The notes under the pieces were generated by a model. It was not told the origin of the DNA and did not search any database. It worked only from the letters and a program-made list of their open reading frames with translations. The translations under genes were made by a program, and so were the position numbers. A DNA stretch of 21,983 nt, from the NCBI RefSeq assembly GCF_004010195.1, contig NC_057719.1, forward strand, positions 3,169,797-3,191,779. The letters run 5' to 3'. This DNA comes from Chiloscyllium plagiosum (lineage: Eukaryota). Below are positions 1 through 21,983 of this stretch, piece after piece. The stretch's first letter is position 1, and each line of letters begins with the position of its first letter.

Positions 1-283
1 ACCTCACCCTTTCCCACATTGTACTCCATCTGCCACTTCTTTGCCCACCCTCCTAAACTGTCCAAATCCTTCTACAGCCTCCCTACCTCCTCAATGCTAC
101 CTGTCCCTCCACCGATCTTTATATCATTGCAAACTTAGCCAGAATGCCTTCAGTTCCTTCATCTAGATCATTAATGTATAAAGTGAAACGTTGTGGTCCC
201 AACACTGAGTCTTACGGAACGCACTTGTCACCGGCTACCATCCTGAGAAGGACCCTTTTATCCTCACTCTCTGCTTCCTGCTT
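1..283 (-). mobile_element. CR1-clade LINE ORF2 reverse-transcriptase fragment (degenerate; runs off the window start)
   Basis: Minus-strand translation gives RT motifs across frameshifts: KQRVRIKGSFSGW, SVLGPQRFTLYINDLDEGTEGILAKFA, LDSLGGWAKKWQMEYNVGK. Confidence 0.85.
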
Positions 284-700
284 TTATCCTTCCCCTAGTG
301 GGGTGACCAGAACTGGACACAGTACTCCAGAAGAGGTCTCATTGATATCCTGTACAACCTCAACGTGACATCCTAACTCGCTGTACTCAAAGGTCAGAGC
401 AATGAAGGCCAGATTGCCAAATGTCCTCTCGACATGTGACACAAATTTCAAAGAATTATGTACCTGAACCCCTACGTCTCTCTGTTCTACAACATTACCC
501 AGGGCCCTACTATTAACAGTATAAGTCCTGCTTTTGTTTATTTTACCAAAATGCAGCACCTCACATTTTTCCAAACTAAACTCCATTTGCCACTCCTCAG
601 CCCATTGACCAAGATCCCTTTGTAATTTTAGATAACTTTCCTCACTGTCCACCATGCCATCCGCAAAGTTACTAACCATACCTCCTAACCTTTCATCCAA
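284..700 (-). mobile_element. CR1-clade LINE ORF2 fragment (post-RT region, internally deleted)
   Basis: ORF 284-700 contains WAEEWQMEFSLEKCEVLHFG...VEQRDVGVQVHNSLK, typical of CR1 ORF2. Confidence 0.88.
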
Positions 701-774
701 ATGGTGAGGAGTGAAATATCAGGCAGCTGCCTTGACCCTTTATGCCAATTGTGGACTGTTACCCTCCTGGAATA

Positions 775-788
775 AGAGAGAGAGAGAG
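775..788 (+). repeat. (AG)n microsatellite
   Basis: About 7 AG units adjacent to the LINE 3' tail. Confidence 0.8.
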
Positions 789-2095: not shown

Positions 2096-2353
2096 CCATG
2101 GTGGAGTGGGGGGGGAGTATGGTGGGGCAAATATTGCAAGCAATAAAAGTGCCCAGCTCTGATTGTTGGTGCCAGTGCGGTGGTGCCCTGTGTGAGGGAG
2201 TAGACAGCACTGAGGGCATGTGGAGAGACTGGTGCCAAGGGATGGGGGGTGGAGAGGTGAGAGCATCTGAGGGGAGGATGTTGATGTGACAGTGAGGGAG
2301 GTAGAGCATGGGTCTTGGTGGGGGTTGGTACAGTAGCAGAGCGTGAGTGTGAG

Positions 2354-2853
2354 NNNNNNNNNNNNNNNNNNNNNNNNNNNNNNNNNNNNNNNNNNNNNNN
2401 NNNNNNNNNNNNNNNNNNNNNNNNNNNNNNNNNNNNNNNNNNNNNNNNNNNNNNNNNNNNNNNNNNNNNNNNNNNNNNNNNNNNNNNNNNNNNNNNNNNN
2501 NNNNNNNNNNNNNNNNNNNNNNNNNNNNNNNNNNNNNNNNNNNNNNNNNNNNNNNNNNNNNNNNNNNNNNNNNNNNNNNNNNNNNNNNNNNNNNNNNNNN
2601 NNNNNNNNNNNNNNNNNNNNNNNNNNNNNNNNNNNNNNNNNNNNNNNNNNNNNNNNNNNNNNNNNNNNNNNNNNNNNNNNNNNNNNNNNNNNNNNNNNNN
2701 NNNNNNNNNNNNNNNNNNNNNNNNNNNNNNNNNNNNNNNNNNNNNNNNNNNNNNNNNNNNNNNNNNNNNNNNNNNNNNNNNNNNNNNNNNNNNNNNNNNN
2801 NNNNNNNNNNNNNNNNNNNNNNNNNNNNNNNNNNNNNNNNNNNNNNNNNNNNN
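2354..2853. other. Assembly gap (500 N)
   Basis: Run of N. Confidence 1.
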
Positions 2854-3484
2854 CCATTATACAACCCTACTCTCTTGACATTATAAAGTATTTATTCAAA
2901 TCTTCTGCTATTTCTTGGCTCCTCATTATTTTTCCCAAGTCTCATTCTCTAAGGGATTTATGTTCACTTTTGCCTCTCTCTTCCTTTTGACATATTTAGA
3001 AGAAGCTCTTACTGTTTGTTTTTATATTACTTGCTTATTTGCCTCATAGTTTATATTTTTCCCTCAGATATGTTTTCATTGGCTTTCGTTGGCTTTAGGA
3101 TATTCCCAATCCTTCATCTTTTTAATTTTGCCACATTTTATGACTTTTTTCTTTAAATGTAATATTATCCTTCCGTCACTTGTGTTAGCCGTGTCCAGTT
3201 TATTCTCTTCGAAGAATCCTTCTTCCTCACTGGGACATATCTTTGCTTTCGGTCATGAACTATTTTATTAAATGTCGGTCATTCTTCCTCAACCATCCTT
3301 TCTGTTAATCGCCTTTCCCGGTCCACTCCAGTCAACTCAGCCTCATTATTTAGTAATTATCCTTATTTGAGCTTAGTGTAGCTGTTTATGGCCCAAGTTT
3401 CTTACTCTCAAAATAAATGTGAAATTCTACCATGTTATGGTCACTGTTCCCTCAGCAATCTTTTAGTCTGACATTATTTCTTAA

Positions 3485-3674
3485 TGATTTGGAGATGCCG
3501 GTGTTGGACTGGAGTGTACAAAGTTAAAAATCACACAACACCAGGTTATAGTCCAACAGGTTTAATTGGAAGCACACTAGCTTTCGGAGCGACGCTCCTT
3601 GGAGCGGCGCTCCGAAAGCTAGTGTGCTTCCAATTAAACCTGTTGGACGATAACCTGGTGTTGTGTGATTTTTA
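3485..3674. mobile_element. Fold-back (palindromic) Penelope-like retroelement remnant with 14-bp TSD
   Basis: Inverted arms 3523-3598 and 3601-3676 (74/76 complementary), with a 38-nt extension at 3485-3522. Direct repeat ACATTATTTCTTAA at 3471-3484 and 3675-3688. Both arms contain GGAGC-N3-GCTCC-GAAAGCTA (hammerhead stem II plus GAAA). Confidence 0.8.
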
Positions 3675-3895
3675 ACATTATTTCTTAAAATTTCCCCTTA
3701 CACGTCACCAAAAACCTGATCTCTTATTGGATCTGCCACATATTGTTCCAGGAAACTGTCCTGAATACAGTCTTTGAATTCTTTCTTATGGCTCCCTTTA
3801 CCAGTTAAAATCACCCATTGCCTTTTTTACTGCCTTTCCCCACATCCGCCCCCCCACCAATGCCTTCTTTCCCTTTTTTATTTCTTACCTGAACC

Positions 3896-4475
3896 CATGT
3901 TGCAGCTGTACAGGAAACTGATGAGGCTAATTTTCAAATACTGCATGCAATTCTGGTCTCCCTACTATAGGAAGGATGCTATGAAACTTGAAAGGGTTCA
4001 GAAAAGATTTACAAGGATGTTGCCAGGGTTGGAGGATTTGAGCTACAGGGAGAGGTTGAACAGGCTGGGGCTGTTTTCCCTGGAGCGTCAGAGGCTGAGG
4101 GGTGACCTAATAGAGGTTTATAAAATCATGAGGGGCATGGATAGTGTAAATGGACAAGGCCTTTTCCCTGGGGTGTCCAGAACTAGAGGGCATAAGTATA
4201 GGGTGAGAGGGGAAAGATATAAAAGGGTCCTAAGGGGCAACATTTTCACATAGAGGGTGGTACGTGTGTGGAACGAGCTGCCAGAGGAAGTGGTGGAGGC
4301 TGGTACAATTATAACTTTTAAAAAGCATCTGGATGGGTACATGAATAGGAAGGGTTTAGAGGGATATGGGCCAAATGCTGACAAATGGGACTAGATTGAT
4401 CTAAGATATCTGGTTGACATGGACAAATTGGACTGAAAGGTCTGTTTCCATGCTGTACATCTCTATGACTCTATG
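3896..4475 (+). mobile_element. HER1-type CR1 LINE 3' fragment
   Basis: Encodes YCMQFWSPYYRKDAMKLERVQKRFTRMLPGLEDLSYRERLNRLGLFSLERQRLRGDLIEVYKIMRG and ends in a CTCTATGACTCTATG tail. Confidence 0.92.
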
Positions 4476-4979
4476 TGGATCTATATCTACTGATCCAAGA
4501 TAACTTCTTGCTATCCAAATTATTCCATATTGTACTAACAAAGCCAGCCCACTATTGTCCCCTTCCAACCTATTCTTTCAAAAAGCCATATACCCCTGAA
4601 TGTTGAGTTCCCAGTTATGATCTCCTTGTAACCATGTCTCTGTAATGGCTATAAGATCATACCCATTCACCTGTATTTGTTTTAGTAAGTCATCTATTTT
4701 GCTCTGAATACCACATGCATTTTAGGTGAAGAGTTTTGCCTTTTTACCATTTTCTCCCCTTTAACCCTATGTTTTTTTATTTAATGTTGGTAGACTGTCC
4801 TTTCCTGCCCCACTTCGGATATCATTAACAAAATTGCTGGCCTGTAAGGCTATCATTTGCTCTTATTTTATAAGCCGATATCTCCTCTTGCCTGAACCCA
4901 CCCTCTTTATTTGTTTAAAGCCCTCTCTACAGGCCCAATTGTTTGATTATCCAGGACATTGGTCTGAGCACATTTCAAG

Positions 4980-5771
4980 TGTTATGACGTGGAGACAATC
5001 AGCCTTTCGACCTCTGTATTTGCAACAAAGTCAAATTATAACCTTCAAAGATTTTCAAAATTGATGCTAGTGGTTCCTGACCAGACTCTGTATTGACAAT
5101 TCTTGACATTGGTATATATATATATATATATAAAAACTTAACAATTTATTAATAATGCAGAAACTTTAGCAAAGCAAATTTAAACAACAAAGTAATCTCT
5201 GTCTGATTTAAAACTCGATAACATTTGTTTTTAATCCCACTCGCATGAAACTCTACGGTCGATAAACAAACACAGTAGAGATAAATCCATGAAAATAACA
5301 AAACTGGCCAAATTACCTGAGCAGTTTTCATGATACATTGTTCCACTGGCTTATATGATGGTTCCTTGGTTGATTTTCTGAAGACGTCCATCAGACTCAT
5401 CCTTTCAGATCATGGAAGAAATCAGTGACGACACTAACTTTGTTTCTATTCTCTGAACTTCCAATAGCTGGCATAGGGAGAGAGCTTTCAAACCTCCACG
5501 TTGTACCATCAACTGCCAGACTCCTCTGAGAACAAGTCCAGAAACCAGTTGCAGAGTCTGTAGAATATTTTGATCAAGATGTAACTAAATTTCAGGCCTG
5601 GCCTCATAAACAAACAATGGCTTGTTTGTTCTAGCTTCCTTTTGTTTAAAACCATACAGCTGCTCACACTCCTAAGGTCATCTCTAGCTCATAGCCTGAA
5701 GTTCACAGCTCCAAACCAAATTACTAAAAGGATAAAATGAAAATAATGAAAGATCAGCAAGGGTTCTAACA
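4980..5771 (-). mobile_element. Solo LTR (792 bp), probably Gypsy-type
   Basis: Termini TGTTA...TAACA form a 5-bp inverted repeat (TG...CA). Flanked by the 4-bp direct repeat CAAG (4976-4979 and 5772-5775). The host CR1 sequence continues across it. AATAAA on the minus strand near 5145-5150 suggests the orientation. Confidence 0.8.
5113..5132. repeat. (TA)n microsatellite inside the LTR
   Basis: About 10 TA units. Confidence 0.85.
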
Positions 5772-5889
5772 CAAGTGAAGATGGCTCCACCAGAACAGCT
5801 CCCTTCGACCTAGGTGCCAATATTAACTGAAACCCTTACTAACCACCAAAATCCCTCAGCCACTTCTTTACCGCCTCGACTTTATTTCA

Positions 5890-6735
5890 TATTGAAGAAG
5901 ACAAATGGTATGTTGGCCTTCATAGTGAGAGGGTTAGAGTACAGGAGCAGAGATGTCTTGCTGCTATTATACAGGACATTGGTGAGATCACACCTGGAGT
6001 ATTGTGGGCAGTTTTGGTCTCCTTATCTGAGGAAGGATGTCCTGGATATTAACGGAGCACAGCAAGGTTTCCCAGACTGATTCCTGGGATGAAGAGTGTG
6101 GTGCTGGAAAAGCACAGCAGGTCAGGCAGCATCTGAGGAGCAGGAGAATCAACATTTCATACATAAGCCCTTCATCATGAAACGTCGATTCTCCTGCTCC
6201 TTGGATGCTGCCTGACCGGCTGTGCTTTTCCAGCACCACACTCTTTGACTGTGATCACCACACCTGCAGTCCTCACTTCCTCCTGATTCCTGGGATGGCA
6301 GGACTGACGTATGACGAGAGAGTGAATCAGTAAGGATTATATTCACTGGAGTTTAGAAGAATAAAAGGGATCTCATAGAAACCTGTAAAATTCCAACAGG
6401 ATTAGACAGAGTAAACACAGGAAGGATGTTCCTGATGGCCAGGAAGTCCAGAATCAGGGGGTCACAGTCTAAGGATATGAATAAGGCCATTTATGACGAA
6501 GATGAGAATTTCCTTCACCCAGACAGTGGGGAGCCTGTGGAACTCTGCCACAGAAAGCCATTGAGGCCATAACTTTGAATGTTTCCATAAAAGAGCTAGA
6601 TAAAGTTCTTGGGGCTAAAGGGGAGAAAGTGGAACAAAGTAAGGAGTTTGACGAACAGCAATGATCCTATTGAATGGTGAAGCAGTGTCAAAAGGCTGAA
6701 TGGCCTACACCTGTTCCTGCTTTCTCTGTTTCGAT
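5890..6735 (+). mobile_element. CR1-clade LINE 3' fragment (second subfamily), interrupted at 6092-6282
   Basis: Encodes KKTNGMLAFIVRGLEYRSRDVLLLLYRTLVRSHLEYCGQFWSPYLRKDV. The 3' UTR ends GGCTGAATGGCCTACACCTGTTCCTG, homologous to 8245-8642. Confidence 0.88.
6092..6282. mobile_element. Fold-back Penelope-like element with perfect 15-bp TSD
   Basis: Inverted arms 6092-6160 and 6177-6245 (~64/69 complementary), with a 37-nt tail at 6246-6282. TSD CTGATTCCTGGGATG at 6077-6091 and 6283-6297. A degenerate hammerhead core lies in the centre. Confidence 0.85.
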
Positions 6736-6873
6736 GATGTACTGCCTACATATCTGGCATCACACAGGCACTGAAATTCTTATACCATGTTACGCAATGG
6801 GAAGCCTGTCAGTGGCAAACAACAGCCATGTTGCTATAGTATCACATTCCATGGCAAAACTTGTCCCACCACA

Positions 6874-7070
6874 ATTTAGATCAGAGTGGTGCTGGAAAAG
6901 CACAGCAGGTTAGGCAGCATCCGAGGAGCAGGAAAATCGACGTTTCGGGCAAAAGCCCTTCATCAGGAAATTTTCCTGCTCCTTGGATGCTGCCTGACCT
7001 GCTGTGTTTTTCCAGCACCACTCTGATCTAAACTCTGGTTTCCAACAACTGCAGTCCTCACTTTTGCCTA
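6874..7070. mobile_element. Fold-back Penelope-like element, same family as 6092-6282
   Basis: Inverted arms 6875-6937 and 6970-7032 (60/63 complementary), with a 38-nt tail at 7033-7070. Imperfect TSD CTTGTCCCACCACA (6860-6873) / CCTGTACCACCACA (7071-7084). Confidence 0.85.
6931..6976 (-). ncRNA. Minimal type I hammerhead ribozyme motif
   Basis: Minus strand reads GGAAAAUUUC-CUGAUGA-A-GGGC-UUUU-GCCC-GAAA-CGUC^GAUUUUCC. It has the conserved CUGAnGA and GAAA boxes, a 4-bp stem II, a palindromic ACGU in place of stem III, and a GUC cleavage triplet. Confidence 0.7.
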
Positions 7071-7231
7071 CCTGTACCACCACAGCCCACTTGCCAACCA
7101 CGAGAGCACAGTCCTCTCAATTTGTACAACTATTGGTCTTATCCTTGAAATGATGTTCTTGCAAAATGTCCTGGTGAGTGTGAGATGAAAAGCTGTGGCA
7201 AAATGTTGCCTTTTTTCAGTAATGCTGTACT

Positions 7232-7330
7232 TCTAATGAAAAGCTATCAGCCTGAAATATTAGCTCTGTTCCTCTTTTTCACAGGTGCTGTTAGGCCTGC
7301 TGGAAATTTAATACATTTTCTGTTTTTGTA
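7232..7330 (+). mobile_element. Degenerate Penelope-like terminal fragment with decayed hammerhead core
   Basis: CTAATGAAAAGCTATCAGCCTGAAATATTA resembles CUGAUGA...GAAACGUU. It is followed by GGTGCTGTTAGGCCTGCTG, similar to GATGCTGCCTGACCTGCTG in the fold-back elements. Confidence 0.55.
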
Positions 7331-7747
7331 CATTAGTTGTGAGTGACTGTAAATAATTCTACGGCGTAGACTCAACGATTCAATGAAACTTGGTCAAACT
7401 TGTAGCTGAGACAGAGAAAATCGAGAAACTGCTCTCATTAGCCCAGAGAAGGTTAAGGGATTATTTTAATAAATGTTCCGAAAGCAATAATGAAAACGTA
7501 TTATTCAACCTATACAAGAGGAAATCCTAGAGAGGTTTGTAAGGGTTTTTAAAAGGTTTTATACAGGCTGTAACTGCAAGCTATGACAAAGTAATCTCAG
7601 AAAGCTGTCCCTAATTCCTTTCACAATAGTGTTCATGCTAAATGTTAATTGAAGGAAATAAGTTGGTGTCACTAAGTGTTATTATTATTGAGAGCTGAGA
7701 TGATTGATGAAGGTGGTGCTGTTAGATGTTCATTACTTACTCAGCAA

Positions 7748-8642
7748 GCTGGCCTTCGTACTGAGCGGGGACACCTTGCTACAATTGTACAGGGCCTTGG
7801 TGAGACACCCCCGGAATACTGTGTGCCGTTTTGATCTCCTCATCTGAGGAAGGACGTTCTGCGATGGAAGGAGTATAGCGAGGGTTTACCAGACTGATTC
7901 CTGGGATGACTTATGAAGACAGTCTTTTCCCTGGGGTGGGGAAGTCCAGAACTAGAGGGCATAGGTTTAGGGTGAGAGGGGAAAGATATAAAAAGAACAT
8001 AAGGGGCAACGTTTTCACGCAACGGGTGGTGTGTGTATGGAATGAGCTGCCAGAGGAAGAGGTGGAGGCTGGTACAATTGCAACATTTAAAAGGCATCTG
8101 GATGGGTATATGAATAGGAAAGGTTTGGAGGGGTATGGGCCGGGTGCTGGTAGATGAGACTAGATTAGGTTAGAATATCTGGCCAGCATGGATGAGTTGG
8201 ACTGAAGGACCTGTTTCCGTGCTGTATAACTCTATGACTCTATGGTGAGGAATCTCTCCACTCGAGCTTAGAAGAATGAGGGAGAATCTCATAGAAACCT
8301 AGAAAATTCCTACAGGATTAGAGAGGGTTAATGCAGGAAGGATGTTCCCAATGACCAGGGAATCCAGAACTGGGGCTCACAGTCTAAGGACTTAGGGCAG
8401 GCCATTTCGGACTGGGATGAGAATGGGGAGCCTGGGGAATTCTCTGCCATAGAAAGCATTTGAGACCAAAATATTGAATGCTTTCATAAGGAGTTAGATA
8501 TCGTTCTTGGGGCTAAAGGGATAAAAGAAAATATAGAGAAAGTGAGAACAAGAGACTGAGATGGATGATCAGCTACGACCATCTTGAATAGCAAACAGTC
8601 TAAAGGGCTGAATGGCCTCCTCCTGTATTCTATGTTCCTATG
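7748..8642 (+). mobile_element. CR1-clade LINE 3' fragment (same subfamily as 5890-6735) hosting a HER1-type insertion
   Basis: Shares CTGAGGAAGGA...CCAGACTGATTCCTGGGATG and GAAGGATGTTCC...TCACAGTCTAAGGA with the 5890-6735 copy. Ends in a CTATGTTCCTATG tail. Confidence 0.82.
7921..8244 (+). mobile_element. HER1-type CR1 LINE short 3' fragment
   Basis: Encodes LFPGVGKSRTRGHRFRVRGERYKKNIRGNVFTQRVVCVWNELP and has a CTCTATGACTCTATG tail. Highly similar to 4160-4475. Confidence 0.9.
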
Positions 8643-8671
8643 ACACCAGTAGGAACTCTCTATGGTCTTGT

Positions 8672-8830
8672 TCAAACTGTGCCATGGGACCTTTAGCCAG
8701 AACTTAGCCTCATCCAGAAAAGATGACACCTCTGACCGTGTAGCACTACTATGGGTCTTGTGTTCGATTTTGTAGAGTGCGATTTCAGCTCACGACATCC
8801 TGACTCTGGGATTACCCAGTGCAGCACAGG
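8672..8830 (-). mobile_element. DeuSINE-like (SacSINE1/AmnSINE1-related) relic
   Basis: CCTCATCCAGAAAAGATGACACCTCTGACCGTGTAGCACT resembles the reverse-complemented Deu-domain core (recalled as CTCATCCGAAAGACGGCACCTCCGACAGTGCAGCACT). A decayed tRNA-like head follows. Confidence 0.6.
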
Positions 8831-9009
8831 AAGCATAAAGACTGCAGATAGTCCATTCCCATCTCTAATTTAGCACTCATCGTTGGAGAGGTCACATGAT
8901 AGCACAGTGTAAGCTCTCTTCTGGGATTCGACTAAATTATTGCATTGAACCCAGTGTGTAAGCTGACCATCTTGGTGGTTACGACTGCTGTGTTATTCTT
9001 TGCTGAGAT

Positions 9010-9200
9010 TAGGGCATCAGTGTCACTCCTTGTTGCCCATTCCTAATTGTCCTTGAACTGAGCAGCTTGTTAGGGTATTTCAGAGGGCACTTAAAAGTTA
9101 CCCATGTTACCATGGGTCTGAAATGCCACGGGTGTGGTGGGATTTGAACTCTTACCTCTCTGCTTTAGTAGCCTAGCAATATTACTATTATTCCATCAAT
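9010..9200 (-). mobile_element. Degenerate tRNA-derived shark SINE (tail shared with the LINE at 11803-12375)
   Basis: GCCCATTCCTAATTGTCCTTGAA tail, and B-box reverse complement GGGATTTGAACT at ~9138-9150. Homologous to 16825-17143. Confidence 0.6.
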
Positions 9201-9481
9201 TCCTCAGTCTGTATCCCTGCTCAAACCATCAGCCTATATTCCCCTAAACCCAGTTATGATGTTGGAACAAGGTACACACGGAGAGTCCTGAAGATGTTTA
9301 CAGCATGGCACACAGGCCAGCTCAGAATGATCGTGTTATTATTAACAACTACATCTTTCACCATGTCCAACCTTCCTCCCCTCAGCAACCTGAAACAGAA
9401 CCTCCCTGGACCGTCTGGTTTGCTGCCGGGTTCACCTGCACCGTTCTCCAAGCAGATATCATGAAAGCCAGAGCTTATCAG

Positions 9482-9790
9482 CAACAACTTGCATTGACAT
9501 AGCCCCATTCATGTCGTGAAGCATTCCAAGGTGACAAGTGGGAGCATTATCAGACCAAGTGTGACATGGAAGTGAGCAAAAGGCATGAACAGACAGGAAC
9601 ACTTTGAACAGAGAATTCCAGAAGCCGGGATGCAAGAGCAGAGGAAATGGTCACCAATGGTGAATTGATTTATAACAGGCATGTTCACAGTGCCACAATT
9701 AGAGGAAGGAGCGTTGTTATTATAGGGATTGAGCCGGGTGAGGCTGTGGAGAAATTTGAACACAACGATAGGAGTTTTAATGAGATGGAG
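9482..9790 (-). mobile_element. L2-clade LINE 3' fragment (old)
   Basis: CAACAACTTGCATTGACATAGC is the reverse complement of an L2-type tail (GCTATATAAATGCAAGTTGTTG). Downstream sequence is weakly complementary to 10188-10360. Confidence 0.6.
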
Positions 9791-10081
9791 ATAGTTATGC
9801 CAAATTCCAATTCACTGAACAAACAGGCTAATCGTCGTTTATCTACACAACTGCACTGAAGGACAAATGGGACGAATGGATGAGGAGAGGGGGAGCAAAT
9901 TGGAGGTTATCAGTGACTCTGACCTCAGGGGTGAGTTCAAATAGGCTCAGCGATTCCCGCTATGGGGGTGGGGAAGCTAAATTATGAAAGGTAGCCTTTT
10001 CCTTAGAACAGCTAACGTTGATCAATGAGGAATTAACCTTACTGTTAAAATAGACAAAGGTGTACAAAGAGACTGAAAGTA

Positions 10082-10185
10082 CAAGAGAAAGTGCTGGAAA
10101 CACTCAGTAGGTCAGTTAACATTGAGAGAGAGAGAGAGAGAGAGCAAGGCAGAAGCTGATTCAAATTCCTGGTCAATGACCTTGG
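10082..10185 (-). mobile_element. Degenerate Penelope-like terminal fragment with internal (GA)n expansion (10124-10144)
   Basis: AAAGTGCTGGAAACACTCAGTAGGTCAG resembles the arm GTGCTGGAAAAGCACAGCAGGTCAGG of the fold-back elements. Confidence 0.5.
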
Positions 10186-10187
10186 AG

Positions 10188-10360
10188 GTAACCCTCCAAG
10201 ATCTCTAATTGCAGCCTCTCGAGCATCTCCAATTTTAATCTCTCCATCTCAGGTCTCAGCTGCTTGGGACCTGAGCTCCAACATTCCCTCTGCAAATCCC
10301 TTTGCCTCTGTTTCTCTCTCTCTTGCTCCCCCTTTAAGACAATCCTTAAAACTGATTGTT
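10188..10360 (+). mobile_element. L2-clade LINE 3' region fragment
   Basis: TCAGCTGCTTGGGACCTGAGCTCCAACATTCCCTC...CCTTTAAGACAATCCTTAAAAC corresponds to the degenerate L2 ORF2 C-terminus (FS..GP.LWNSLP...FK..LKT). Confidence 0.6.
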
Positions 10361-10364
10361 GTGA

Positions 10365-11766
10365 ACGAACTGAACAAAGAACGTTACAGCACAGGAACAG
10401 GCCCTTCAGCCCACCAAGACTGTGCTGAGACCTGAAGCCTTTCTAAACTATAAACCTTTTGCCCCTATGCTGTTTGTATCCCTCTATCCCCTCCCTGTTC
10501 ATGTAACTGTCAAGGTGCCTCTTAAACATTGTCATTGTATCCACCTCCACCAACTCTGCGGGTAGTGCATTCCAGGCACTTACCATCCTCTGTCTAAAAA
10601 ACACCCATCTATCACATCTCCTTTAACTTCCCCTTTTACCTTAAACCTATGTCCCTTAGTTAATGGCATTTCTACTCCTGGGAAAAAGATTCTGACTATC
10701 CATTCTATCCACGCTTCTCATAATTTTGTAAATCTGCGTCAGACTGCCCTTCATCCTTTGAAGTCTAAGTTAAAACAAACCAAGTCTGTCCAATCTCTCC
10801 TCATAGCTAATACTCTCCAAACCAGGCAAAATCCTGGTAAACCCTTTCTGTACCCTCTGCAAAGCCTCCAGAATGTTCTGGTAGTATGATGGCCATAACT
10901 GTACACAATATTCCAAATGTGGCCTAACTAAAGTTTTAAGCAGCTGCAACATGTCTTGCCAATTTTTATACTCTATGCCTCAGCCAATGAAGGCAAAGAT
11001 TCCATATGCCTTCTTGACCACCTTATCCACTTGTCTTGCCCCTTTCAAAGGAATCTGGACCAGTGTGTCTGGATTCTTCCATATGTTGATGCTTTTAGGG
11101 ATTCTGCCTTTTCTCGTATGCGTCCCTCCCACATTAGATTTCCTATAATTCATCACCTCGCATTTGTCTGGATTAATCCATCTACCATTTCTCTGCCTTA
11201 ATCTCCAGCCTATCTACATTCTGCTGTATCCTTTGGCAATCCTCCTCCCTGTCCACAGCTCCACAAATGTTCGTGTCATCCGCAAACTTACTAATCAGGT
11301 CCCCTACATTCTGCTCCAAATATATTTCCAAGCAACAAGGCTCCCACCACAGATCTCCTGGCAGAAAAGCACCCTTTCATTACTACTCTGTTTCTGACTG
11401 AGCCAGTTCTGTATCCATCTTACCCTCTCACTGCAGATCCCACATGACATCACCTTCTGTACCAGCCTGCCATGAGGGACCTTGTCAAAAGCCTTGCTAA
11501 AGTCCATATGGACAACATCCACAGCACTACCCTCATCAATCATCTTCATCCACTTCCACATAAAGCTCAATCACATTTGTGAGACTTGACCTTCCCTGCA
11601 CAAAGCCCATGTGGCCTGTAGTTAATATATTTTTCCAAATGTAAGTAAATTCCTGTCCCAAAGAATCTTCTCTGAATTTCTGAGCCATGATCTAAGGCTT
11701 GCTGGCTGTCACTTCCTCGATTATCCCTGTTGCTCTTCTTAAAGAAAGGACCAACATTGGCTATTC
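10365..11766 (-). mobile_element. CR1-clade LINE, RT domain to 3' end, with internal deletions
   Basis: Minus-strand IDEGSAVDVVHMDFSKAFDKVPHGRL...WIQNWLS, KFADDT (~11271-11289) and LVRPHLEYCVQLW...LQRVQKGFTRILPGL, followed by a TTCTTTGTTC tail. Confidence 0.9.
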
Positions 11767-11802
11767 AAATGTTTGGTTACCTGTTGCAACTTTTAAAAAT
11801 TC

Positions 11803-12375
11803 TATTCATTCATGGGGTAGGGGCTGGGCCAGCATTTATTACTCATCCCTAGTTGCCCCTTGAGAAGGTGGGGGTGAGCTGCCTTCTTGAACTGCTGCAG
11901 TCCATGTTCTGTAGGTAGATCACAATGGCCCTTAGGGAGGGAATTCCAGGATTCTGACCCAGTGACAGTGAAGGAACGGCGATATATTTCCAAGTCAGGA
12001 TGGTGAGTGGCTTGGAGGGGAACTTGCAGGGGGTGGTGTTCCCATGTATCTGCTGCCCTTGTCCTTCTAGATGGAAGTGGTTATGGGTTTGGAAGGTGCT
12101 GTCTGAGGAATCTTTGGTGAACTTCTGGAGTGCATCTTGTAGATAGTACACACTGCTGCTACTGAGCGTCGGTAGTGGAGGAAATGGATGTTTGCAGATG
12201 TGGTGGCAGTCAAACTGCTGCTTTGTCCTGGAGCTGCCCCGCTCCAGGCAAGTGGGGAGTATTCCATCACACTCCTGGCTTGTGCCTTGGAGATGATGGG
12301 ACAGGCTTTGGGAGTCAGGAAGTAAGTTACTTGCCGCAGTATTCCCAGCCTCTGACCTGCTCTTGTGTGTGTCTC
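11803..12375 (-). mobile_element. Non-LTR retrotransposon (CR1/L2 group) 3' fragment
   Basis: RAGQRLGILRQV...KAQARSVMEYSPLAW...HYRRSVAAVCTIYKMH, then SWNSLP...FKKAAHPHLL. The 3' tail ends ATGAATGAATA. Confidence 0.8.
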
Positions 12376-12404
12376 GCTGTCAACTTTTGTCGGATGGTGA
12401 ACAA

Positions 12405-12585: not shown

Positions 12586-12856
12586 TATTAGATATTTTTG
12601 AAGGAGAGATGGTCGTGTTTTAAATGTTAATATAAAAGCAAAAAGCAACTGAGACTGGGATGACAAGAATATATTTTCTGTATGCTTCCAGCATCTTCTG
12701 TTGTTAATTGAGATTTCTGGCAACTTACATTATTTTATTTTCTGTTTCTCAATGAGGGTGAATCTGATTTCCAAGGGTGAGGCATACAGAGGACCCCTTT
12801 AAGAAACAGAAACTAGTTTATGTCCTGGTTTATAGGCCCTTTGTTGCTAAGGGAGT

Positions 12857-12870
12857 GTTGCCCTGGTAAC
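12857..12870. promoter_or_regulatory. RFX X-box motif
   Basis: GTTGCCCTGGTAAC versus consensus GTTGCCATGGCAAC, with an adjacent half site GTTGCTAAGG at 12843. Confidence 0.5.
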
Positions 12871-13124
12871 TAAATACAAGACTCATGACAGCTTGAGCAG
12901 ATGAAAACAGCACCACATGATTGCTGCCTGCCATGGTCTCTCTCAGTCTGCTCAGAATGGGAAGGGTTATTTAGAGATTCGTGCTGGAGGAACAAAGCTG
13001 TCCCTAAAGCTTGGTCCAGGAACCTTGGCAGACAGCTCAGTGCAGAAAGCAGCTGCATTCGGAAACCCATCCCGGCTGGGAGCTGTCCATAAGGGGAGGG
13101 AGTCACTTGCTACTGAGTGGGCGA

Positions 13125-13172
13125 GTGTGTGTGTGAGAGAGAGAGAGAGACAGAGAGACAGAGAGAGAGACA
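13125..13172 (+). repeat. Compound (GT)n(GA)n/GACA microsatellite near the 5' end of the gene
   Basis: GTGTGTGTGTGAGAGAGAGAGAGAGACAGAGAGACAGAGAGAGAGACA. Confidence 0.9.
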
Positions 13173-13288
13173 AAGGGATGCTGTCAGAGAGCCGTTGGTG
13201 CTGAAACAGAGAGACTGCCAGGGAAACGCGATTGATCAGAGCCTGCGACTGTCAACTTTCGGATAGTGGAGCACTCCAGTAACCCACC

Positions 13289-13315
13289 ATGGATCTCTCG
13301 TTCATGGCTGCACAG
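13289..13315 (+). CDS. C14orf132: First coding exon (partial CDS, 9 codons) of the C14orf132 homolog, a small transmembrane protein
   Basis: Ideal Kozak CCCACCATGG. ATG GAT CTC TCG TTC ATG GCT GCA CAG = MDLSFMAAQ, identical to the recalled N-terminus of human C14orf132 ([21 protein letters not shown]...). Immediately followed by a phase-0 donor CAG|GTAAAG. Exon 2 was not seen in the window. Confidence 0.88.
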
Positions 13316-14102
13316 GTAAAGCCTTTAACAAACAAAATGAAATTACCTCCTAAAGATAAGATTCGAGCGTGATTATCTTTGCCCCTACCTTTAACGTTTT
13401 TTTTTATTGGAAGTGTCAAGCAACCAACAGAAAAACAATGGTTTCCTGGCGAGGAAGCAAGGGGATAGATTTTGAAATCCAGGCCATTTGTTGAATGATT
13501 GTAATTCACTGCAAAAAACAAAGGGTTTCTTTCACTGCTCTCCCTGTGAATATTAAAGACAGTTTCTGTCGGCTGGCGGTAATGATTGATACTGTTGTAT
13601 ATTAAAACCCTAGTGCCTTGCCTCACTCTTCAAGCTAAATGAAGTAGGGCATGGTCCTCAACCAGAGCTTTGTTGAGTTTTTCAGTTTGCTATTTCAGAC
13701 CCTTTCTGTTACCTCCTCCCCACCCCCACCCACCGGCTCCCTTATATTTCTCACAAAATGATTTCTTTCTGCAGCCTCTGGTTATGAACCTTACACCTTA
13801 AATTTCCTCTCCCGCTTTCTCCTCCACTGACCAGTGTCTTCAGATATTCGTCTGAGGGGTTGGACTCATTGGCACTGCCCCCCACCCCACCCCACCCCAC
13901 CCAGTCGCTTCCTATCTCCCTCTTGTTGATGTCCAGGATGTGAGAAAGGGAGGGTGAGGCAGGGGGTTTGTGGGCCGACTGTATTTGGGGAGAGAAGACC
14001 CGGGGCAAGGTACAATCCCAACACTCCGTACACAAAGGGGACTCTGTGAAAGGGGCCAATGGGGCTTAAGGATACAGTGAAACCCACTGGGCAGTGCATT
14101 GA

Positions 14103-14326
14103 CTGGGATGGCGAGTCGGAAAAGAGGGATGGTCCCTAGATGTGGGGCTGGGAAAGACAGACAGTCCCTGGATATGGGGCTGAGAAAGGCAGACTCCCAG
14201 GGTGTGGGACTGGGAAAGATGGACACTCCCTGGATGTGGATCTAGGAAAGACAAATATTCCCAGGATGTGGGTCTGAGAAAGAGAGGCATTCCTGGGATG
14301 TGAGGCCAGGAAAGATGGATGATCCC
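14103..14326 (+). repeat. Degenerate ~32-bp tandem repeat, ~7 copies
   Basis: Units of the form CCWGGATGTGGGNCTGRGAAAGANRGACANTC. Confidence 0.8.
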
Positions 14327-14364
14327 AGAATTGATTTTCTCCCTATGTTATTTTCCAGTCTTGT

Positions 14365-14635
14365 GGGTGGTGATGGTCATGATAGTGATGGTGGCGATAA
14401 GGGATTGATAATATTGTGATGTCATGTAGTCATCTCGGTGATTGTGGTGATGGTGGTGAAGGTGATAGTGTTGGCAGTGACCGTGCTGGTGGTGCTGATG
14501 GTGATGGTGATGTCAGTGGAGTTGTTCATGGAGGTGATGGTGATAATGGTGGTCTTGGTAGTAATGGTGGCACTGGTGGTAATGGCGATGGAAGTGATGA
14601 CTGTTTTGATGGTAGTGTTAGCAATGGCTTTGCCA
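14365..14635 (+). repeat. Degenerate (GGT/GAT)n trinucleotide low-complexity tract
   Basis: Persistent 3-nt periodicity (GGTGATGGTGGT...), giving G/D-, V/M- and T/I-rich spurious ORFs. Confidence 0.88.
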
Positions 14636-15164
14636 TGTGAAGATAGGCAGTCCCACATATCGGTAATGGTTCTGGAAAGGGTGATAGCCACTTCAGTTTC
14701 CCCTCCCCCTCTGAAGCCTTATCGATACCAACATACTGGGGTTATAGGTTTGAGAAGACTGCAGGAGGGAAGCAGTGGGTTCTGTATGAAGTCCCATCCC
14801 TTTCGTCCTCTACATCCTTCAAATAATGTCTCGTGTGGGATCAATAAGTGCCTGGGGTGAGGGAGGGGCTGGTCACATCCGTAAAGTGCATGGGTCCGAA
14901 GAGTTTGAAGTGCAATAGGGAGGGGTCTGTCTGAAGACTGTGCACTTGGCTTATTGAGCTGCTTTGGTGTCTCTGCCTTGTGCTCATTCTCTCAATCAAT
15001 CACACTGATATTTTTCATTATTTGTTCTCAACAAATGTGATAAAGTGAATATGATTGTTTTGTAATTTGTTGCTTCATCAATCATAAAAACGCTCGCGAG
15101 CAAATCAGGCCATGATTATAGCAATCTGCTGACCTCTCACCTTTCTGGTTGAGGGAACAGGCTT

Positions 15165-15178
15165 GTTGCTATGGAGAC
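15165..15178. promoter_or_regulatory. Intronic RFX X-box motif
   Basis: GTTGCTATGGAGAC; the reverse complement GTCTCCATAGCAAC fits GTHNYY-AT-RRNAAC. Confidence 0.45.
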
Positions 15179-15629
15179 TGGGAATGGAGGTCAGGTTGGA
15201 AGGGTCAACTGTGTCCCCACATGACCTGCAACCTCCCCATCCCCCACCATGCCGACATGATGCCATTGGTCAGTCCTCGTGGTTCCCCGCCCTACAGCCT
15301 GTCCATTATTTACCAGAATGAATCTGAACTTTCCCAATCCACATCCCTGGAACTAACGGCACAAAGAACACCAAGGAGGTCACTGTTTTTGTTTTAAGGA
15401 TTTCTTTCTCCATTGCACAGTATTGAAATGTCAACTGCAAGAGAAACTGAGCCCTCGTTGGGTGTGGGTACCCTCACTGGGAGGGACGAGTCCCATCTCG
15501 TGCCTGAAATGATGGTGTGGAGGGAGGGGGGTATGGCAGGGAAGTGGGAGGGTGAGGATGAGGTGAGGGGGTTAGGGGAGGGGCTGGGCAGACAGGTTAT
15601 GGTAGAGGGGAAAGGGGGGGGTTGAGTGG

Positions 15630-16599
15630 NNNNNNNNNNNNNNNNNNNNNNNNNNNNNNNNNNNNNNNNNNNNNNNNNNNNNNNNNNNNNNNNNNNNNNN
15701 NNNNNNNNNNNNNNNNNNNNNNNNNNNNNNNNNNNNNNNNNNNNNNNNNNNNNNNNNNNNNNNNNNNNNNNNNNNNNNNNNNNNNNNNNNNNNNNNNNNN
15801 NNNNNNNNNNNNNNNNNNNNNNNNNNNNNNNNNNNNNNNNNNNNNNNNNNNNNNNNNNNNNNNNNNNNNNNNNNNNNNNNNNNNNNNNNNNNNNNNNNNN
15901 NNNNNNNNNNNNNNNNNNNNNNNNNNNNNNNNNNNNNNNNNNNNNNNNNNNNNNNNNNNNNNNNNNNNNNNNNNNNNNNNNNNNNNNNNNNNNNNNNNNN
16001 NNNNNNNNNNNNNNNNNNNNNNNNNNNNNNNNNNNNNNNNNNNNNNNNNNNNNNNNNNNNNNNNNNNNNNNNNNNNNNNNNNNNNNNNNNNNNNNNNNNN
16101 NNNNNNNNNNNNNNNNNNNNNNNNNNNNNNNNNNNNNNNNNNNNNNNNNNNNNNNNNNNNNNNNNNNNNNNNNNNNNNNNNNNNNNNNNNNNNNNNNNNN
16201 NNNNNNNNNNNNNNNNNNNNNNNNNNNNNNNNNNNNNNNNNNNNNNNNNNNNNNNNNNNNNNNNNNNNNNNNNNNNNNNNNNNNNNNNNNNNNNNNNNNN
16301 NNNNNNNNNNNNNNNNNNNNNNNNNNNNNNNNNNNNNNNNNNNNNNNNNNNNNNNNNNNNNNNNNNNNNNNNNNNNNNNNNNNNNNNNNNNNNNNNNNNN
16401 NNNNNNNNNNNNNNNNNNNNNNNNNNNNNNNNNNNNNNNNNNNNNNNNNNNNNNNNNNNNNNNNNNNNNNNNNNNNNNNNNNNNNNNNNNNNNNNNNNNN
16501 NNNNNNNNNNNNNNNNNNNNNNNNNNNNNNNNNNNNNNNNNNNNNNNNNNNNNNNNNNNNNNNNNNNNNNNNNNNNNNNNNNNNNNNNNNNNNNNNNNN
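15630..16599. other. Assembly gap (970 N) flanked by G-rich low-complexity sequence
   Basis: Run of N with GGG-rich flanks at 15510-15629 and 16600-16716. Confidence 1.
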
Positions 16600-16824
16600 G
16601 GAGTGAGGAGGGGGAAGGGGAGTGGGGTTAGTGAGGGGGAGGGAGTAGGGGAATGGGACTGAGAAGAGTGGAGGGTGTGGGGAGTGGTATTGGGGGAGAG
16701 GGGACAGGGCAGGGGAACAGAGTTGTTATCATTGAACAGAATTCCCATCACTCCCCAGAATTCCTTGATCAATTCGGGAAATCCTTGAAATTCCAAGTGA
16801 TAGTTGTCAGGAAGCTTCCTCAAC

Positions 16825-17143
16825 CATGAGACGTTGGCATCAACTGGCACAGCCAGAGTTTGTTGTTTGTCCCTAATTGCCCTCAAGAGGGGTGGTGGAG
16901 CTAATTGAGTCCCTTGCTTGGCCACTTCAAAGTTAATTAAAGATCAGTAACATGGCTGTGTTTATAAATCCATCCACAGGCCAGGCTGACTAAGGTCAAG
17001 AGGGTTTCTCCTTGTGGGGCCATTGGTGAATCAGAATGGGTTTTTACCACATTCCTACACATCATCATTACTGTTACCGGATTGTTCCAGAACTATTTAA
17101 GAAAGGTCTGTGGTAGAATTTGAATTTGAATCTCCATGGTATA
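16825..17143 (-). mobile_element. Degenerate tRNA-derived shark SINE (same family as 9010-9200), head end abutting the minisatellite
   Basis: Tail TCCCTAATTGCCCTCAAGAGGGGTGGTGGAGCT matches the LINE tail at ~11845-11880 (TCCCTAGTTGCCCCTTGAGAAGGTGGGGGTGAGCT). TGTGGTAGAATTTGAAT at ~17109-17125 parallels TGTGGTGGGATTTGAAC at ~9133-9149. Confidence 0.65.
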
Positions 17144-20100
17144 CAGTAAGTATCCCTGGATATTCAGTAAGGATCCCTGGATATTCAGTAAGGATCCTGG
17201 ATATTCAGTAAGTATCCCTGGATATTCAGTAAGGATCCTGGATATTCAGTAAGGATCCCTGGATATTCAGTAAGTATCCCTGGATATTCAGTAAGGATCC
17301 TGGATATTCAGTAAGGATCCTGGGTATTCAGTAAGGGTCCCTGGATATTCAGTAAGGATCCTGGGTATTCAGTAAGGATCCTGGATATTCAGTAAGGATC
17401 CTGGGTATTCAGTAAGGGTCCCTGGGTATTCAGTAAGGATCCTGGATATTCAGTAAGGATCCCTGGATATTCAGTAAGGGTCCTGGATATTCAGTAAGGA
17501 TTCAGGATATTCAGTAAGGGTCCTGGATATTCAGTAAGGATCCTGGATATTCAGTAAGGATCCCTGGATATTTAGTAAGGGTCCTGGATATTCAGTAATG
17601 ATTCAGGATATTCAGTAAGGGTCCTGGATATTCAGTAAGGGTCCTGGATATTCAGTAAGGATTCAGGATATTCAGTAAGGATCCCTGGATATTCAGTAAG
17701 GGTCCTGGATATTCAGGAAGGGTCCCTGGATATTCAGTAAGGGTCCCTGGGTATTCAGTAAGGGTCCCTGGATATTCAGTAAGGATCCCTGGATATTCAG
17801 TAAGGGTCCTGGATATTCAGTAAGGAACCCTGGATATTCAGTAAGGATCGTGCATATTCAGTAAGGATCCCTGGATATTCAGTAAGGGTCCCTGGATATT
17901 CAGTAAGGATCCTGGATATTCAGTAAGGGTCCTGGATATTCAGTAAGGTTCCCTAGATATTCAGTAAGGATCCTGGATATTCAGTATGGGTCCCTGGGTA
18001 TTCAGTAAGGTTCCCTGTGTATTTAGTAAGGATCCGTGGGTATTCAGTAAGGGTCCCTGGGTATTTAGTAAGGATCCCTGGGTATTCAGCAAGGATCGCT
18101 GGGTATTCAGTAAGGGTCATGGATATTCAATAAGGGTCCTGGATATTCAGTAAGGGTCCCTGGATATTCAGTAAGGGTCCTGGATATTCAGAAAGGGTCC
18201 TGGATATTCAATAAGGGTCCTGGATATTCAGTAAGGTTCCTGGATATTCAGTAAGGATCCTGGATATTCAATAAGGGTCCTGGATATTCAGTAAGGATCC
18301 TGGATATTCAGTAAGGGTCCTGGATATTCAGTAAGGATCCCTGGATATTCAGTAAGGGTCCTGGGTATTCAGTAAGGATCCCTGGGTATTCAGTAAGGAT
18401 CCTGGATATTCAGTAAGGATCCCTGGATATTCAGTAAGGGTCCCTGGGTATTCAGTAAGGATCCTGGATATTCAGTAAGGGTCCTGGGTATTCAGTAAGG
18501 GTCCCTGGGTATTCAGTAAGGGTCTCTGGATATTCTGTAAGGATCCCTGGATATTCAGGAAGGATCCTGGATATTCAGTAAGGGTTCATGGATATTCAGC
18601 AAGGATCCTGGGTATTCAGTAAGGATCCAGGGTATTCAGTAAGGATCCAGGGTATTCAGTAAGGATCCTGGATATTCAGTAAGTATCCCTGGATATTCAG
18701 TAAGGATCCTGGATATTCAGTAAGGATCCAGGGTATTCAGTAAGGTCCTGGGTATTCAGTAAGGATCCTGGATATTCTGTAAGGGTCCCTGGATATTCAG
18801 TAAGGATCCCTGGATATTCAGTAAGGATCCCTGGATATTCAGTAAGGGTCCTTGAATATTCAGTAAGCGTCCTGGGTATTTAGTAAGGATCCCTGGATAT
18901 TCAGTAAAGGTCCTGGATATTCAGTAAGGATTCCTGGGTATTCAGTAAGGATCCCTGGGTAATCAGGAAGGGTCCCTGGGTATTCAGTAAGGATCCCTGG
19001 GTATTCATTAAGGGTCCTGGATATTCAGTAAGGGTCCTGGATATTCAATAAGGATCCTGGGTATTAAGTAAGTGTCCCTGGGTATTCAGTAAGGGTCCCT
19101 GGGTATTCAGTAAGGATCCCTGGGTATTCATTAAGGGTCCTGGATATTCAGTAAGGGTCCTGGATATTCAATAAGGATCCTGGGTATTCAGTAAGGGTCC
19201 CTGGATATTCTGTAAGGATCCCAGGATATTCAGTAAGGGTTCATGGATATTCAGTAAGGATCCTGGGTATTCAGTAAGGATCCTGGATATTCACTAAGGG
19301 TCTCTGGATATTCTGTAAGGATCCCTGGATATTCAGTAAGGGTCCTGGTTATTCAGTAAGGGTTCCTGGATATTCAGTAAGGATCCTGGATATTCAGTAA
19401 GGGTCCTGGATATTCAGTAAGGGTTCCTGGATATTCAGTAAGGATCCTGGGTATTCAGTAAGGGTCCCTGGATATTCAGTAAGGATACCTGGATATTCAG
19501 TAAGGATCCTGGATATTCTGTAAGGGTCCTGGATATTCAGTAAGGATCCCTGGGTTTTCAGTAAGGGTCCTGGATATTCAGTAAGGGTCCTGGATATTCA
19601 GTAATGATCCTGGATATTCAGTAAGGGTCCTGGATATTCAGTCAGGGTCCCTGGATATTCAGTAAGGATCGTGGATATTCAGGAAGGATCCTGGATATTC
19701 AGCAAGGTTCCTGGATATTCAGTAAGGATCCCTGGGTATTCATTAAGGGTCCTGGATATTCAGTAAGGGTCCTGGATATTCAGTAAGGGTCCCTGGGTAT
19801 TCAGTAAGGGTCCTGGATATTCAGTAAGGGTCCCTGGGTATTCAGTAAGGATCCCTGGGTATTCAGTAAGGGATCCTGGATATTCAGTAAGGGTCCTGGA
19901 TATTCAGTAAGGGTCCCTGGTTATTCAGTAAGGGTCCTGGATATTCAGTAAGGGTCCCTGGGTATTCAGTAAGGATCCCTGGGTATTCAGTAAGGGTCCC
20001 TGGGTATTCAGTAAGGATCCCTGGATATTCAATAAGGATCCTGAATATTCAGTAAGGGTCCTGGATATTCTGTAAGGATCCCTAGATATTCAGTAAGGAT

Positions 20101-20914
20101 CCTGGATATTCAGTAAGGGTCCCTGGATATTCAGTAAGGATCTTGGGTATTCAGTAAGGGGCCTGGATATTCAGTAAGGATCCTGGATATTCAGTAAGGG
20201 TCCTGGATATTCAGTAAGGATCCTGTGTATTCAGTAAGGGTCCTGGATATTCAGTAAGGATCCTAGATATTCAGTAAGGGTCCTGGATATTCAGTAAGGG
20301 TCCTGGATATTCTGTAAGGGTCTCTGGATATTCTGTAAGGATCCCTGGATATTCAGTAAGGGTTCATGGATATTCAGTAAGGATCCTGGGTATTCAGTAA
20401 GGGTCCATGGGTATTCCGTAAGGATCCTGGGTATTCAGTAATGGTCCCTGGGTATTCCGTAAGGATCCTGGGTATTCAGTAAGGATCCTGGATATTCAGT
20501 AAGGGTCCTTGAATATTCAGTAAGGGTCCTGGATATTCAGTAAGGATCCTGGATATTCAGTAAGGGTCCTGGATATTCAATAAGGATCCTGAATATTCAG
20601 TAAGGATCCTGGATATTCAGTAAGGGTCCTGGATATTCAATAAGGATCCTGGATATTCAGTAAGGGTTCATGGATATTCAGTAAGGATCCTGGGTATTCA
20701 GTAAGGATCCCTGGGTATTCAGTAAGGGTCCCTGGGTATTCAGTAAGGATCCTGGGTATTCAGTAAGGGTCCTGGATATTCAGCAAGGATCCTGGATATT
20801 CAGTAAGGGTCCTGGATATTCAGTAATGGTCCCTGGATATTCAGTAAGGGATCCTGGATATTCAGTAAGGGTCCTGGATATTCAGTAAGGGTCCTGGGTA
20901 TTCAGTAAGGATCC
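17144..20914 (+). repeat. Minisatellite (VNTR), 20/21-bp unit CAGTAAGG(A/G)TCC(C)TGG(A/G)TATT, ~180-185 copies
   Basis: 3771 bp of uninterrupted head-to-tail units with no spacers. Copy number is estimated from length divided by ~20.5. Confidence 0.97.
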
Positions 20915-21235
20915 ACAGGTGTTTCTAAAGCAATTGAAATTCTGGGTAACTTTGAGTAACCATTGGCCTCAGAGTGACCAGGTCAAGTTCCCACTCCACT
21001 ATCGTATCCCCATTATCCCGGGAGGCTGGCCATTCAGCCCAGCACGGCAATGCTGGTGTTTATATTCCATGTAAATGACTTCCCATTCTCTTGTTTTGTT
21101 TCCTGACTGTAACCTGCTCACTGTCTTGAGGAGAGGGTAGTTTGGAAAGGAAGGATTTACCTTTACATTGGAGATAAACAATTTCACCAAAGTAACTTTG
21201 ATCCAAGTATTCTGGTCTTTGACAGAGTGGGGAAT

Positions 21236-21983
21236 GATGAGCTTGAGGCTCTTTTGGAAATTGGCAGATATGATATTGTGGGGATAACTGAGACGTGGCT
21301 TCAAGTGGACAGGGCCTGGGAAATGAATATTCAAGGCTATATGTGCTATCGTAAGGACAGACTGACGGGCAGAGGGGGTGGGGTGGCCATGTTGGTAAGG
21401 GATGATATTCAGTCCCTTGCGCGGGGGGGAACCGAGAGTCAGGGGATGTAGAGTCAGTGTGGATAGAGCTGAGAAATACTTAGGGTAAAAAGACCCTCTT
21501 GGGAGTTATCTACTGGCCCCCAAATAGTAGTCTGGATGTCGGATGTAAGTTGAATCAGGAGCTGGAATTGGCCAGTCGCAAAGATGTTACTACAATTGTT
21601 ATGGGGGATTTCAACATGCAGGTAGACTGGGAGAATCAGGATGGTATTGACCTCAAGAAAGAGACTTTATGGAGTCCCTCCGCGATGGATTCTTAGAACA
21701 GCTGGTGCTGGAGCCGACCAGGGAGAAGGCAATTCTGGATCTGGTATTGTGCACCGAACCAGAATTGATCAGGGACCTCAAAGTGAAGGAGCCATTGGGA
21801 GGTAGTGACCATAATACAATAAGCTTCAATCTGCAATTTGAGAGGGAGAGGGTACAATCGGTAATGAAAATATTTCAGTTGAATAAAGGGAACTATGGAG
21901 CTATGAGGGAGGAGCTGGCCAAAGTTCAATGGTGCAATACCTTAGCAGGGATGACAGTGGAGGAACAATGGCAGATATTTCTG
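21236..21983 (+). mobile_element. CR1-clade LINE ORF2 AP-endonuclease region, 5'-truncated and frameshifted; continues past the window end
   Basis: DELEALLEIGRYDIVGITETWL...RKDRLTGRGGGVAMLV, IVMGDFN, ILDLVL, EPLGGSDHN. In-frame TAG at 21481 and frameshifts are present. Confidence 0.92.

Follow-up and report, generated by a model that had tools for sequence, protein, structure and literature searches.

The locus and its features

The sequence analysed is a stretch of 21,983 nt from Chiloscyllium plagiosum (NC_057719.1, GCF_004010195.1, positions 3,169,797-3,191,779 of the forward strand), referred to here as the window. Its central feature is a very short coding exon bounded by a strong start context and a splice donor. 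The features of the locus are as follows, where X1 and X3 denote sequencing runs from a related organism:

12828-13114, + strand (presumed): probable 5' leader, forming the upstream portion of exon 1, covered by one X1 contig at depth 12.1 whose link to the spliced contig is presumptive
13135-13170, + strand: GA microsatellite within the leader (Tandem Repeats Finder, period 2, 18 copies)
13180-13288, + strand: 5' UTR on the spliced contigs (X1 and X3 contigs match 13180-13315)
13280-13282, + strand: in-frame stop TAA just 5' of the ATG, by direct reading
13283-13292, + strand: strong Kozak context CCCACCATGG, with the start ATG at 13289-13291, by direct reading
13289-13315, + strand: coding part of exon 1, 27 nt, nine codons (MDLSFMAAQ), ending in phase 0
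13316-13321, + strand: splice donor GTAAAG; loose ends of the X1 and X3 contigs start right after 13315
13316-21983, + strand: putative intron 1, at least 8,668 nt, as the window holds no exon-2 pattern and the mouse and zebrafish introns are long

The start context differs from the textbook form GCCACCATGG solely at position -6, and the donor at 13316 matches seven of nine consensus positions. Because the TAA at 13280-13282 closes the frame upstream, 13289 is the first possible start. The unspliced frame from this position ends after 27 residues and, being short and closed upstream, is overlooked by ORF callers. The first-pass annotation had described a perfect Kozak sequence, nine codons followed immediately by a GT, and an exon hidden from the ORF track. 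The second and third statements hold as read here, while in the first the strong context stands and "near-perfect" is the more exact term. Across the window there is a single instance of such a Kozak sequence with a donor no more than 60 nt away, compared with a mean of 0.005 in dinucleotide-matched random samples (n = 200, one of which contained one), for a pattern that was picked after the site was known. Pfam returned no family for the 27-residue read-through frame, and Rfam no match across the window.

Six upstream ATGs lie in the putative leader (12828-13288), five of them within the contig at 12828-13114, and none opens a frame that overlaps the main ATG. One of them, at 12933, sits in a good context. 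These ATGs could damp translation of a longer leader form. As alternative starts they were rejected, since two of them are in frame but run into a stop at 13204, and the TAA at 13280 shuts the frame. Contigs are interrupted at 13115-13179, around the GA microsatellite. A TATA-like TATAAAA is present at 12631-12637, about 200 nt upstream of the first transcript cover, and its use is putative.

Splicing and the extent of intron 1

Among the 24 runs listed as matching the window, none is recorded as RNA, and four (X1, X2, X3 and X20) were mapped on 12650-13850. X1 and X3 come from two different studies of organism A, a relative of the window's species, and their RNA nature was guessed by the tool. 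Each has one contig, about 1.06 kb long, which matches the window over 13180-13315 and departs from the genome exactly at 13315. The 30 letters shown beyond this point are identical in the two runs and remain open in frame. Relative to 13180-13315, the contigs differ at four letters (X1) and three letters (X3); the three listed differences (13244, 13248 and 13262) all fall in the UTR, and no difference was seen in the coding part of the exon. X3 holds an additional shallow contig inside the intron (13321-13482, depth 2.3), which may represent pre-mRNA or DNA. The mapping of X2 and X20 on 12650-13850 gave no records (about 6 in 100 of run X20 were read), and the splice was not seen in any run of the best-matching organism D (0.85-0.96 of words), which is probably the window's species. 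The ATG, the nine-codon exon and the splice at 13315/13316 are confirmed, the splice at its predicted base being seen in the contigs of organism A, a close relative.

The second exon was not found in the window. A search with an exon-2 pattern allowing up to three mismatches gave no match there, nor in the viral contigs and prokaryote genomes searched, and no convincing acceptor followed by a hydrophobic frame was seen downstream of 13316. Fifteen candidates combining an acceptor with an open frame were considered; two passed a pyrimidine filter but bear no resemblance to the sequence at the junction. Consequently, 13316-21983 is most likely intron, apart from an unreadable gap of 970 N at 15630-16599, one of two N gaps in the window. 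For comparison, intron 1 measures 33,454 nt in mouse and 68,080 nt in zebrafish (BED columns, PMC4568590). Two expectations of the first-pass annotation bear on these results: that spliced sequence would leave 13315 through the GT at 13316, as the X1 and X3 contigs of the related organism do exactly, and that intron 1 takes up the remainder of the window, which fits the lack of an exon-2 pattern or acceptor in the readable sequence outside the 970-base gap.

The window consists mostly of repeats. Many broken pieces, which we take to be LINE-like, lie on both strands over 1-12400. Inside the presumed intron, the region 21113-21983 holds a LINE endonuclease fragment, with a Pfam hit at 21113-21448 (PF03372, E 5.2e-6). 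Three arrays lie inside the presumed intron: a minisatellite at 14132-14315 (32 bp unit, 5.8 copies), a GGT-rich 18-bp repeat at 14538-14585, and a 3.8 kb satellite at 17140-20914 with about 185 copies of a 20-mer (a 41-mer period is also present) and 88% matches.

Gene identity

The nine residues were searched in the small-ORF supplements of PMC4568590 and returned one mouse and one zebrafish row, both identical to MDLSFMAAQ at all nine positions. The mouse row is the annotated D430019H16Rik (ENSMUST00000178224, J3QPM6; 83 aa) and the zebrafish row is si:ch211-80j13.1 (ENSDART00000152821; chr20, 85 aa), classed there as a lincRNA. The two are mutual partners in the homology graph of that study, both are predicted to be coding by PhyloCSF, and both carry a signal-peptide value of "False" (PMC4568590). 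By BED arithmetic, the coding part of exon 1 is 27 nt long in these two genes as well. The ten codons past the junction in the related organism encode zebrafish residues 10-19 exactly (10/10) and agree with mouse at seven positions, counted by eye, so that across the junction 19 of 19 residues are shared with zebrafish and 16 of the 19 with mouse. According to the mouse row, hg19 belongs to the species in which start, stop and splice sites are conserved, and SNPs in the frame comprise three synonymous and no non-synonymous changes (PMC4568590). The mouse transcript has a long 3' UTR of 5,266 nt.

The name C14orf132 is reached by triangulation from three sources: the mouse row (83 aa, hg19 sites), its position beside Tunar, and the accessible part of PMC4865363 (2016), where the human C14orf132 product is given as a transmembrane protein of 83 aa with its highest level in brain, kept in most mammalian species and at evidence level PE3. 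According to the parts available of two further papers, the gene is located at 14q32 (PMC5034552) and is brain-high with a difference between human and chimpanzee (PMC13399162). The human protein is absent from the supplements of PMC7066179, PMC10155758 and PMC8416971, and of the several names sought for genes of this family, none were found together in one paper of the literature searched. By triangulation, mouse D430019H16Rik is taken to be the C14orf132 orthologue. Fish and shark genome annotations presumably carry a "C14orf132 homolog" already.

On the basis of identity and exon structure, the locus is read as the first of two exons in a C14orf132-family gene, with a probability of roughly 0.88. 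Membership of the family as such is hardly in doubt, and strict orthology to C14orf132 is very probable. The same assignment had been made in the first-pass annotation and is borne out by the nine residues and 27 coding nucleotides shared with the mouse and zebrafish genes. The junction codons overlap eight specified positions of the exon-2 start predicted there and fit seven of them, and the peptide and phase-0 intron position that it proposed to be kept are the same in shark, zebrafish and mouse. The coding nature of the family down to zebrafish is already contained in the 2015 supplement (PMC4568590), and it is the shark member that is new.

Zebrafish has a second C14orf132-like frame, si:ch211-136a13.2 on chr18, classed as a lincRNA (row 1622, PMC4568590 file 12). 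The shark exon might consequently represent this second vertebrate paralog and not the true orthologue of the mammalian gene. The chr18 model is 5'-incomplete and starts at the position of residue 18, its first exon being missing, so the existence of this copy keeps the idea alive. However, the shark residues are identical at 19 of 19 positions to the chr20 gene, the homology-graph partner of the mouse gene, and the chr18 copy appears more diverged in its visible part. The second-paralog assignment is therefore unlikely.

It is far less probable still that the locus is a long non-coding RNA with an incidental frame. C14orf132 is labelled a lincRNA in the accessible parts of PMC5034552 and PMC7297042, the zebrafish transcript is classed likewise (PMC4568590), the available text of PMC4865363 gives the human protein as without protein-level proof as of 2016, and the mouse 3' UTR is long. 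Nevertheless, the residues, the Kozak start and the phase-0 intron are kept between shark, fish and mouse while the flanks are at chance identity, the differences in the metagenome copy described below fall at third positions, and the mouse and zebrafish rows are predicted to be coding, with only synonymous mouse SNPs. Judged by this conservation, the papers naming C14orf132 a lncRNA are contradicted. The probability that the site is a dead remnant, or that Kozak and GT came together by chance among the repeats, is close to negligible: the window is indeed mostly repeats and the splice was not seen in the runs of organism D, but a close relative is spliced at exactly this base in contigs without coding differences, and the peptide is identical to that of two known genes.

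Copies in metagenomes and protein databases

A degenerate pattern, in which the encoded residues were fixed and a following GT was not required, was used to scan metagenome contigs. A single locus was found (L001, 1-1605), with the same codons followed by GT. It matches the window exon at 23 of 27 nt, with all four differences at third positions, while the flanks match at 9/30 and 8/30. The lack of amino-acid changes is built into the search pattern. From a reading of its sequence, L001 is genomic DNA of a fish-like vertebrate within a metagenome assembly.

A word-index protein search with the 53-aa read-through frame of L001 gave two candidates, P0002 and P0003, both read-through frames that start with the same nine residues followed by V, as read-through of the donor would give. 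These are mis-called frames, which means that protein databases hold spurious products of such exons. When the two-sequence alignment A3 was used as a profile against 1.84 billion representatives, there were no hits at E <=0.001. As a simulation placed a nine-residue match at E 23-140, this null result carries no evidence. The ESM Atlas gave no usable hit.

Relationship to TUNAR

The comparison with TUNAR uses mouse and zebrafish proteins from published tables, counted by eye, and includes no shark helix. In the mouse table, the row directly before D430019H16Rik is 2810011L19Rik, whose last 48 residues show one difference from human BNLN/pTUNAR (supplement of PMC8416971). This near-identity identifies 2810011L19Rik as Tunar. 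The C-terminal tails of mouse C14orf132 and pTUNAR, both hydrophobic helices, align without gaps with 10 of 26 residues identical by eye, and those of the zebrafish chr20 protein and megamind with 8 of 26, again by eye. Seven columns, I..T..N..V...VY..T, appear by eye to be the same in all four proteins (two mouse, two zebrafish), and the polar ones lie on one helix face. The probability of at least ten identities is 5e-4 after seven registers, or 1.5e-2 when all frequencies are raised by half; both values are rough and depend on assumed transmembrane frequencies. In the helix of si:ch211-136a13.2, the I, T, N and both V columns are kept, while C and A replace Y and the last T. The remaining word matches in the tables of PMC4568590 (three rows) were rejected as unrelated transporter or worm frames.

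Mouse Tunar ends 69,925 nt upstream of D430019H16Rik on the same strand, and on zebrafish chr18 the TUNAR-like linc-hhipl1 ends 50,179 nt upstream of si:ch211-136a13.2, also on the same strand. An old tandem duplication would leave just such a recurring same-strand pair with similar helices. No TUNAR-like stripe was found in the six frames of the window, and TUNAR is expected 50-70 kb away. The homology graph of PMC4568590 does not connect the C14orf132 and TUNAR genes; it demanded similar length. A gene list for a chromosome-14 interval includes both genes (accessible part of PMC6834745), and such a list is the only place where the two are named together in the literature searched, which leaves most subscription papers outside. 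C14orf132 is named in none of the 25 papers listed out of 55 on TUNAR and SERCA. The mouse and zebrafish sequences suggest that C14orf132 is probably a tandem paralog of pTUNAR, with homologous helices.

Proposed protein, topology and role

The mouse and zebrafish proteins consist of a conserved N-terminus of about 20 residues, a variable acidic and Ser-rich linker, and a hydrophobic helix extending up to the C-terminal end, with no signal peptide. Judging from these proteins, ribosomes starting at the strong Kozak ATG of the shark gene would produce a protein of about 83-85 aa. A helix located within the last ~27 residues of a protein escapes co-translational recognition by SRP and enters the membrane post-translationally as a tail anchor, with the N-terminus in the cytosol. 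As the C14orf132 helix would still be in the ribosome tunnel at termination, post-translational insertion of this kind is quite probable, and the ER is the most likely membrane. The Met-Asp start predicts N-terminal acetylation by NatB. Within the membrane, the polar stripe of T, N, Y and T on one helix face would most likely form the packing surface for a partner, while the invariance of the N-terminus suggests a docking motif for a cytosolic one. In shark, zebrafish and mouse alike, the conserved N-terminus contains two copies of the pattern M-x-x-x-F-M with a spacing of 12 residues, possibly a tandem binding motif.

A candidate target is offered by pTUNAR. In the accessible part of PMC8758570, pTUNAR is described as a transmembrane protein of the ER that brings down SERCA2 in co-precipitation and accelerates calcium clearance, whereas the accessible part of PMC8416971 describes binding to SERCA3 and lowered ER calcium; as far as these parts go, the two papers conflict on the direction of the effect. 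Because pTUNAR is an ER microprotein that binds SERCA, its probable paralog C14orf132 may also modulate the pump, tuning neuronal calcium uptake into the ER. By analogy this is the best single guess for its role, and a doubtful one.

A tail-anchored adaptor with a function unrelated to SERCA has a little over an even chance. Here the helix would oligomerise or would partner a channel, transporter or trafficking factor, and the N-terminal motif would carry the main function. The strongest conservation does lie in the N-terminus, which pTUNAR is without, and 16 of 26 helix positions are unlike pTUNAR. In the text available, Senis et al. leave room for other calcium-clearance targets and Li et al. 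mention further pull-down partners. On the other hand, the polar helix face is precisely the part common to C14orf132 and pTUNAR, and both are brain-enriched in mammals according to the accessible parts of the sources. In the literature searched, nothing was found on the function of the C14orf132 protein or on a shark homolog.

The SERCA reading can be extended into a speculative model of the whole pair. TUNAR and C14orf132 would be ancient tandem tail-anchored paralogs that have stayed neighbours between fish and mammals, with a further duplication of the whole block (zebrafish chr18), and C14orf132 would be a neural regulator of the ER calcium pump with a second, cytosolic docking site in its N-terminus, which is invariant between shark and zebrafish.

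Significance

The gain in annotation is modest, as a known small gene is traced into the cartilaginous fishes. The start motif and the intron position are at least as old as the first jawed vertebrates, and the shark exon adds weight against the lncRNA label in human studies that tie C14orf132 expression to disease. The added value of the comparison lies in the probable paralogy with pTUNAR and, much more tentatively, in the SERCA hypothesis. Should C14orf132 prove to be the sister of pTUNAR/BNLN, a human protein enriched in brain would gain a family, a topology, a candidate target in SERCA and residues to test.

Comparison with known systems

The closest known system is zebrafish si:ch211-80j13.1, which shares the first 19 residues, 27 coding nucleotides in exon 1, a phase-0 intron and a two-exon structure. 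It differs in being listed as a lincRNA, and the comparison with the shark covers the first 19 residues only. Mouse D430019H16Rik has identical first nine residues, 16 of 19 over the junction, and the same 27 coding nucleotides in exon 1. Human C14orf132 (Q9NPU4) is alike by description, as an 83-aa transmembrane protein highest in brain in the accessible part of the source.

More distant is pTUNAR/BNLN, the microprotein of TUNAR, megamind and linc-hhipl1. Like C14orf132, it is small, brain-enriched and first annotated as a lncRNA, has a single C-terminal helix with the same I..T..N..V...VY..T stripe, and lies directly upstream of a C14orf132-type gene on the same strand on mouse chr12 and zebrafish chr18. 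Unlike C14orf132, it has 48 aa and lacks both the invariant N-terminal motif and the 27-nt first coding exon. It is also only for pTUNAR that binding to SERCA and a location in the ER have been reported. The regulins (PLN, SLN, MLN, ELN and ALN) and DWORF are likewise short single-pass microproteins whose target is possibly shared. However, the xLFxxF motif of the regulins, as given in the accessible part of PMC8758570, is absent from pTUNAR and, on inspection by eye, also from the C14orf132 helices of mouse and zebrafish.
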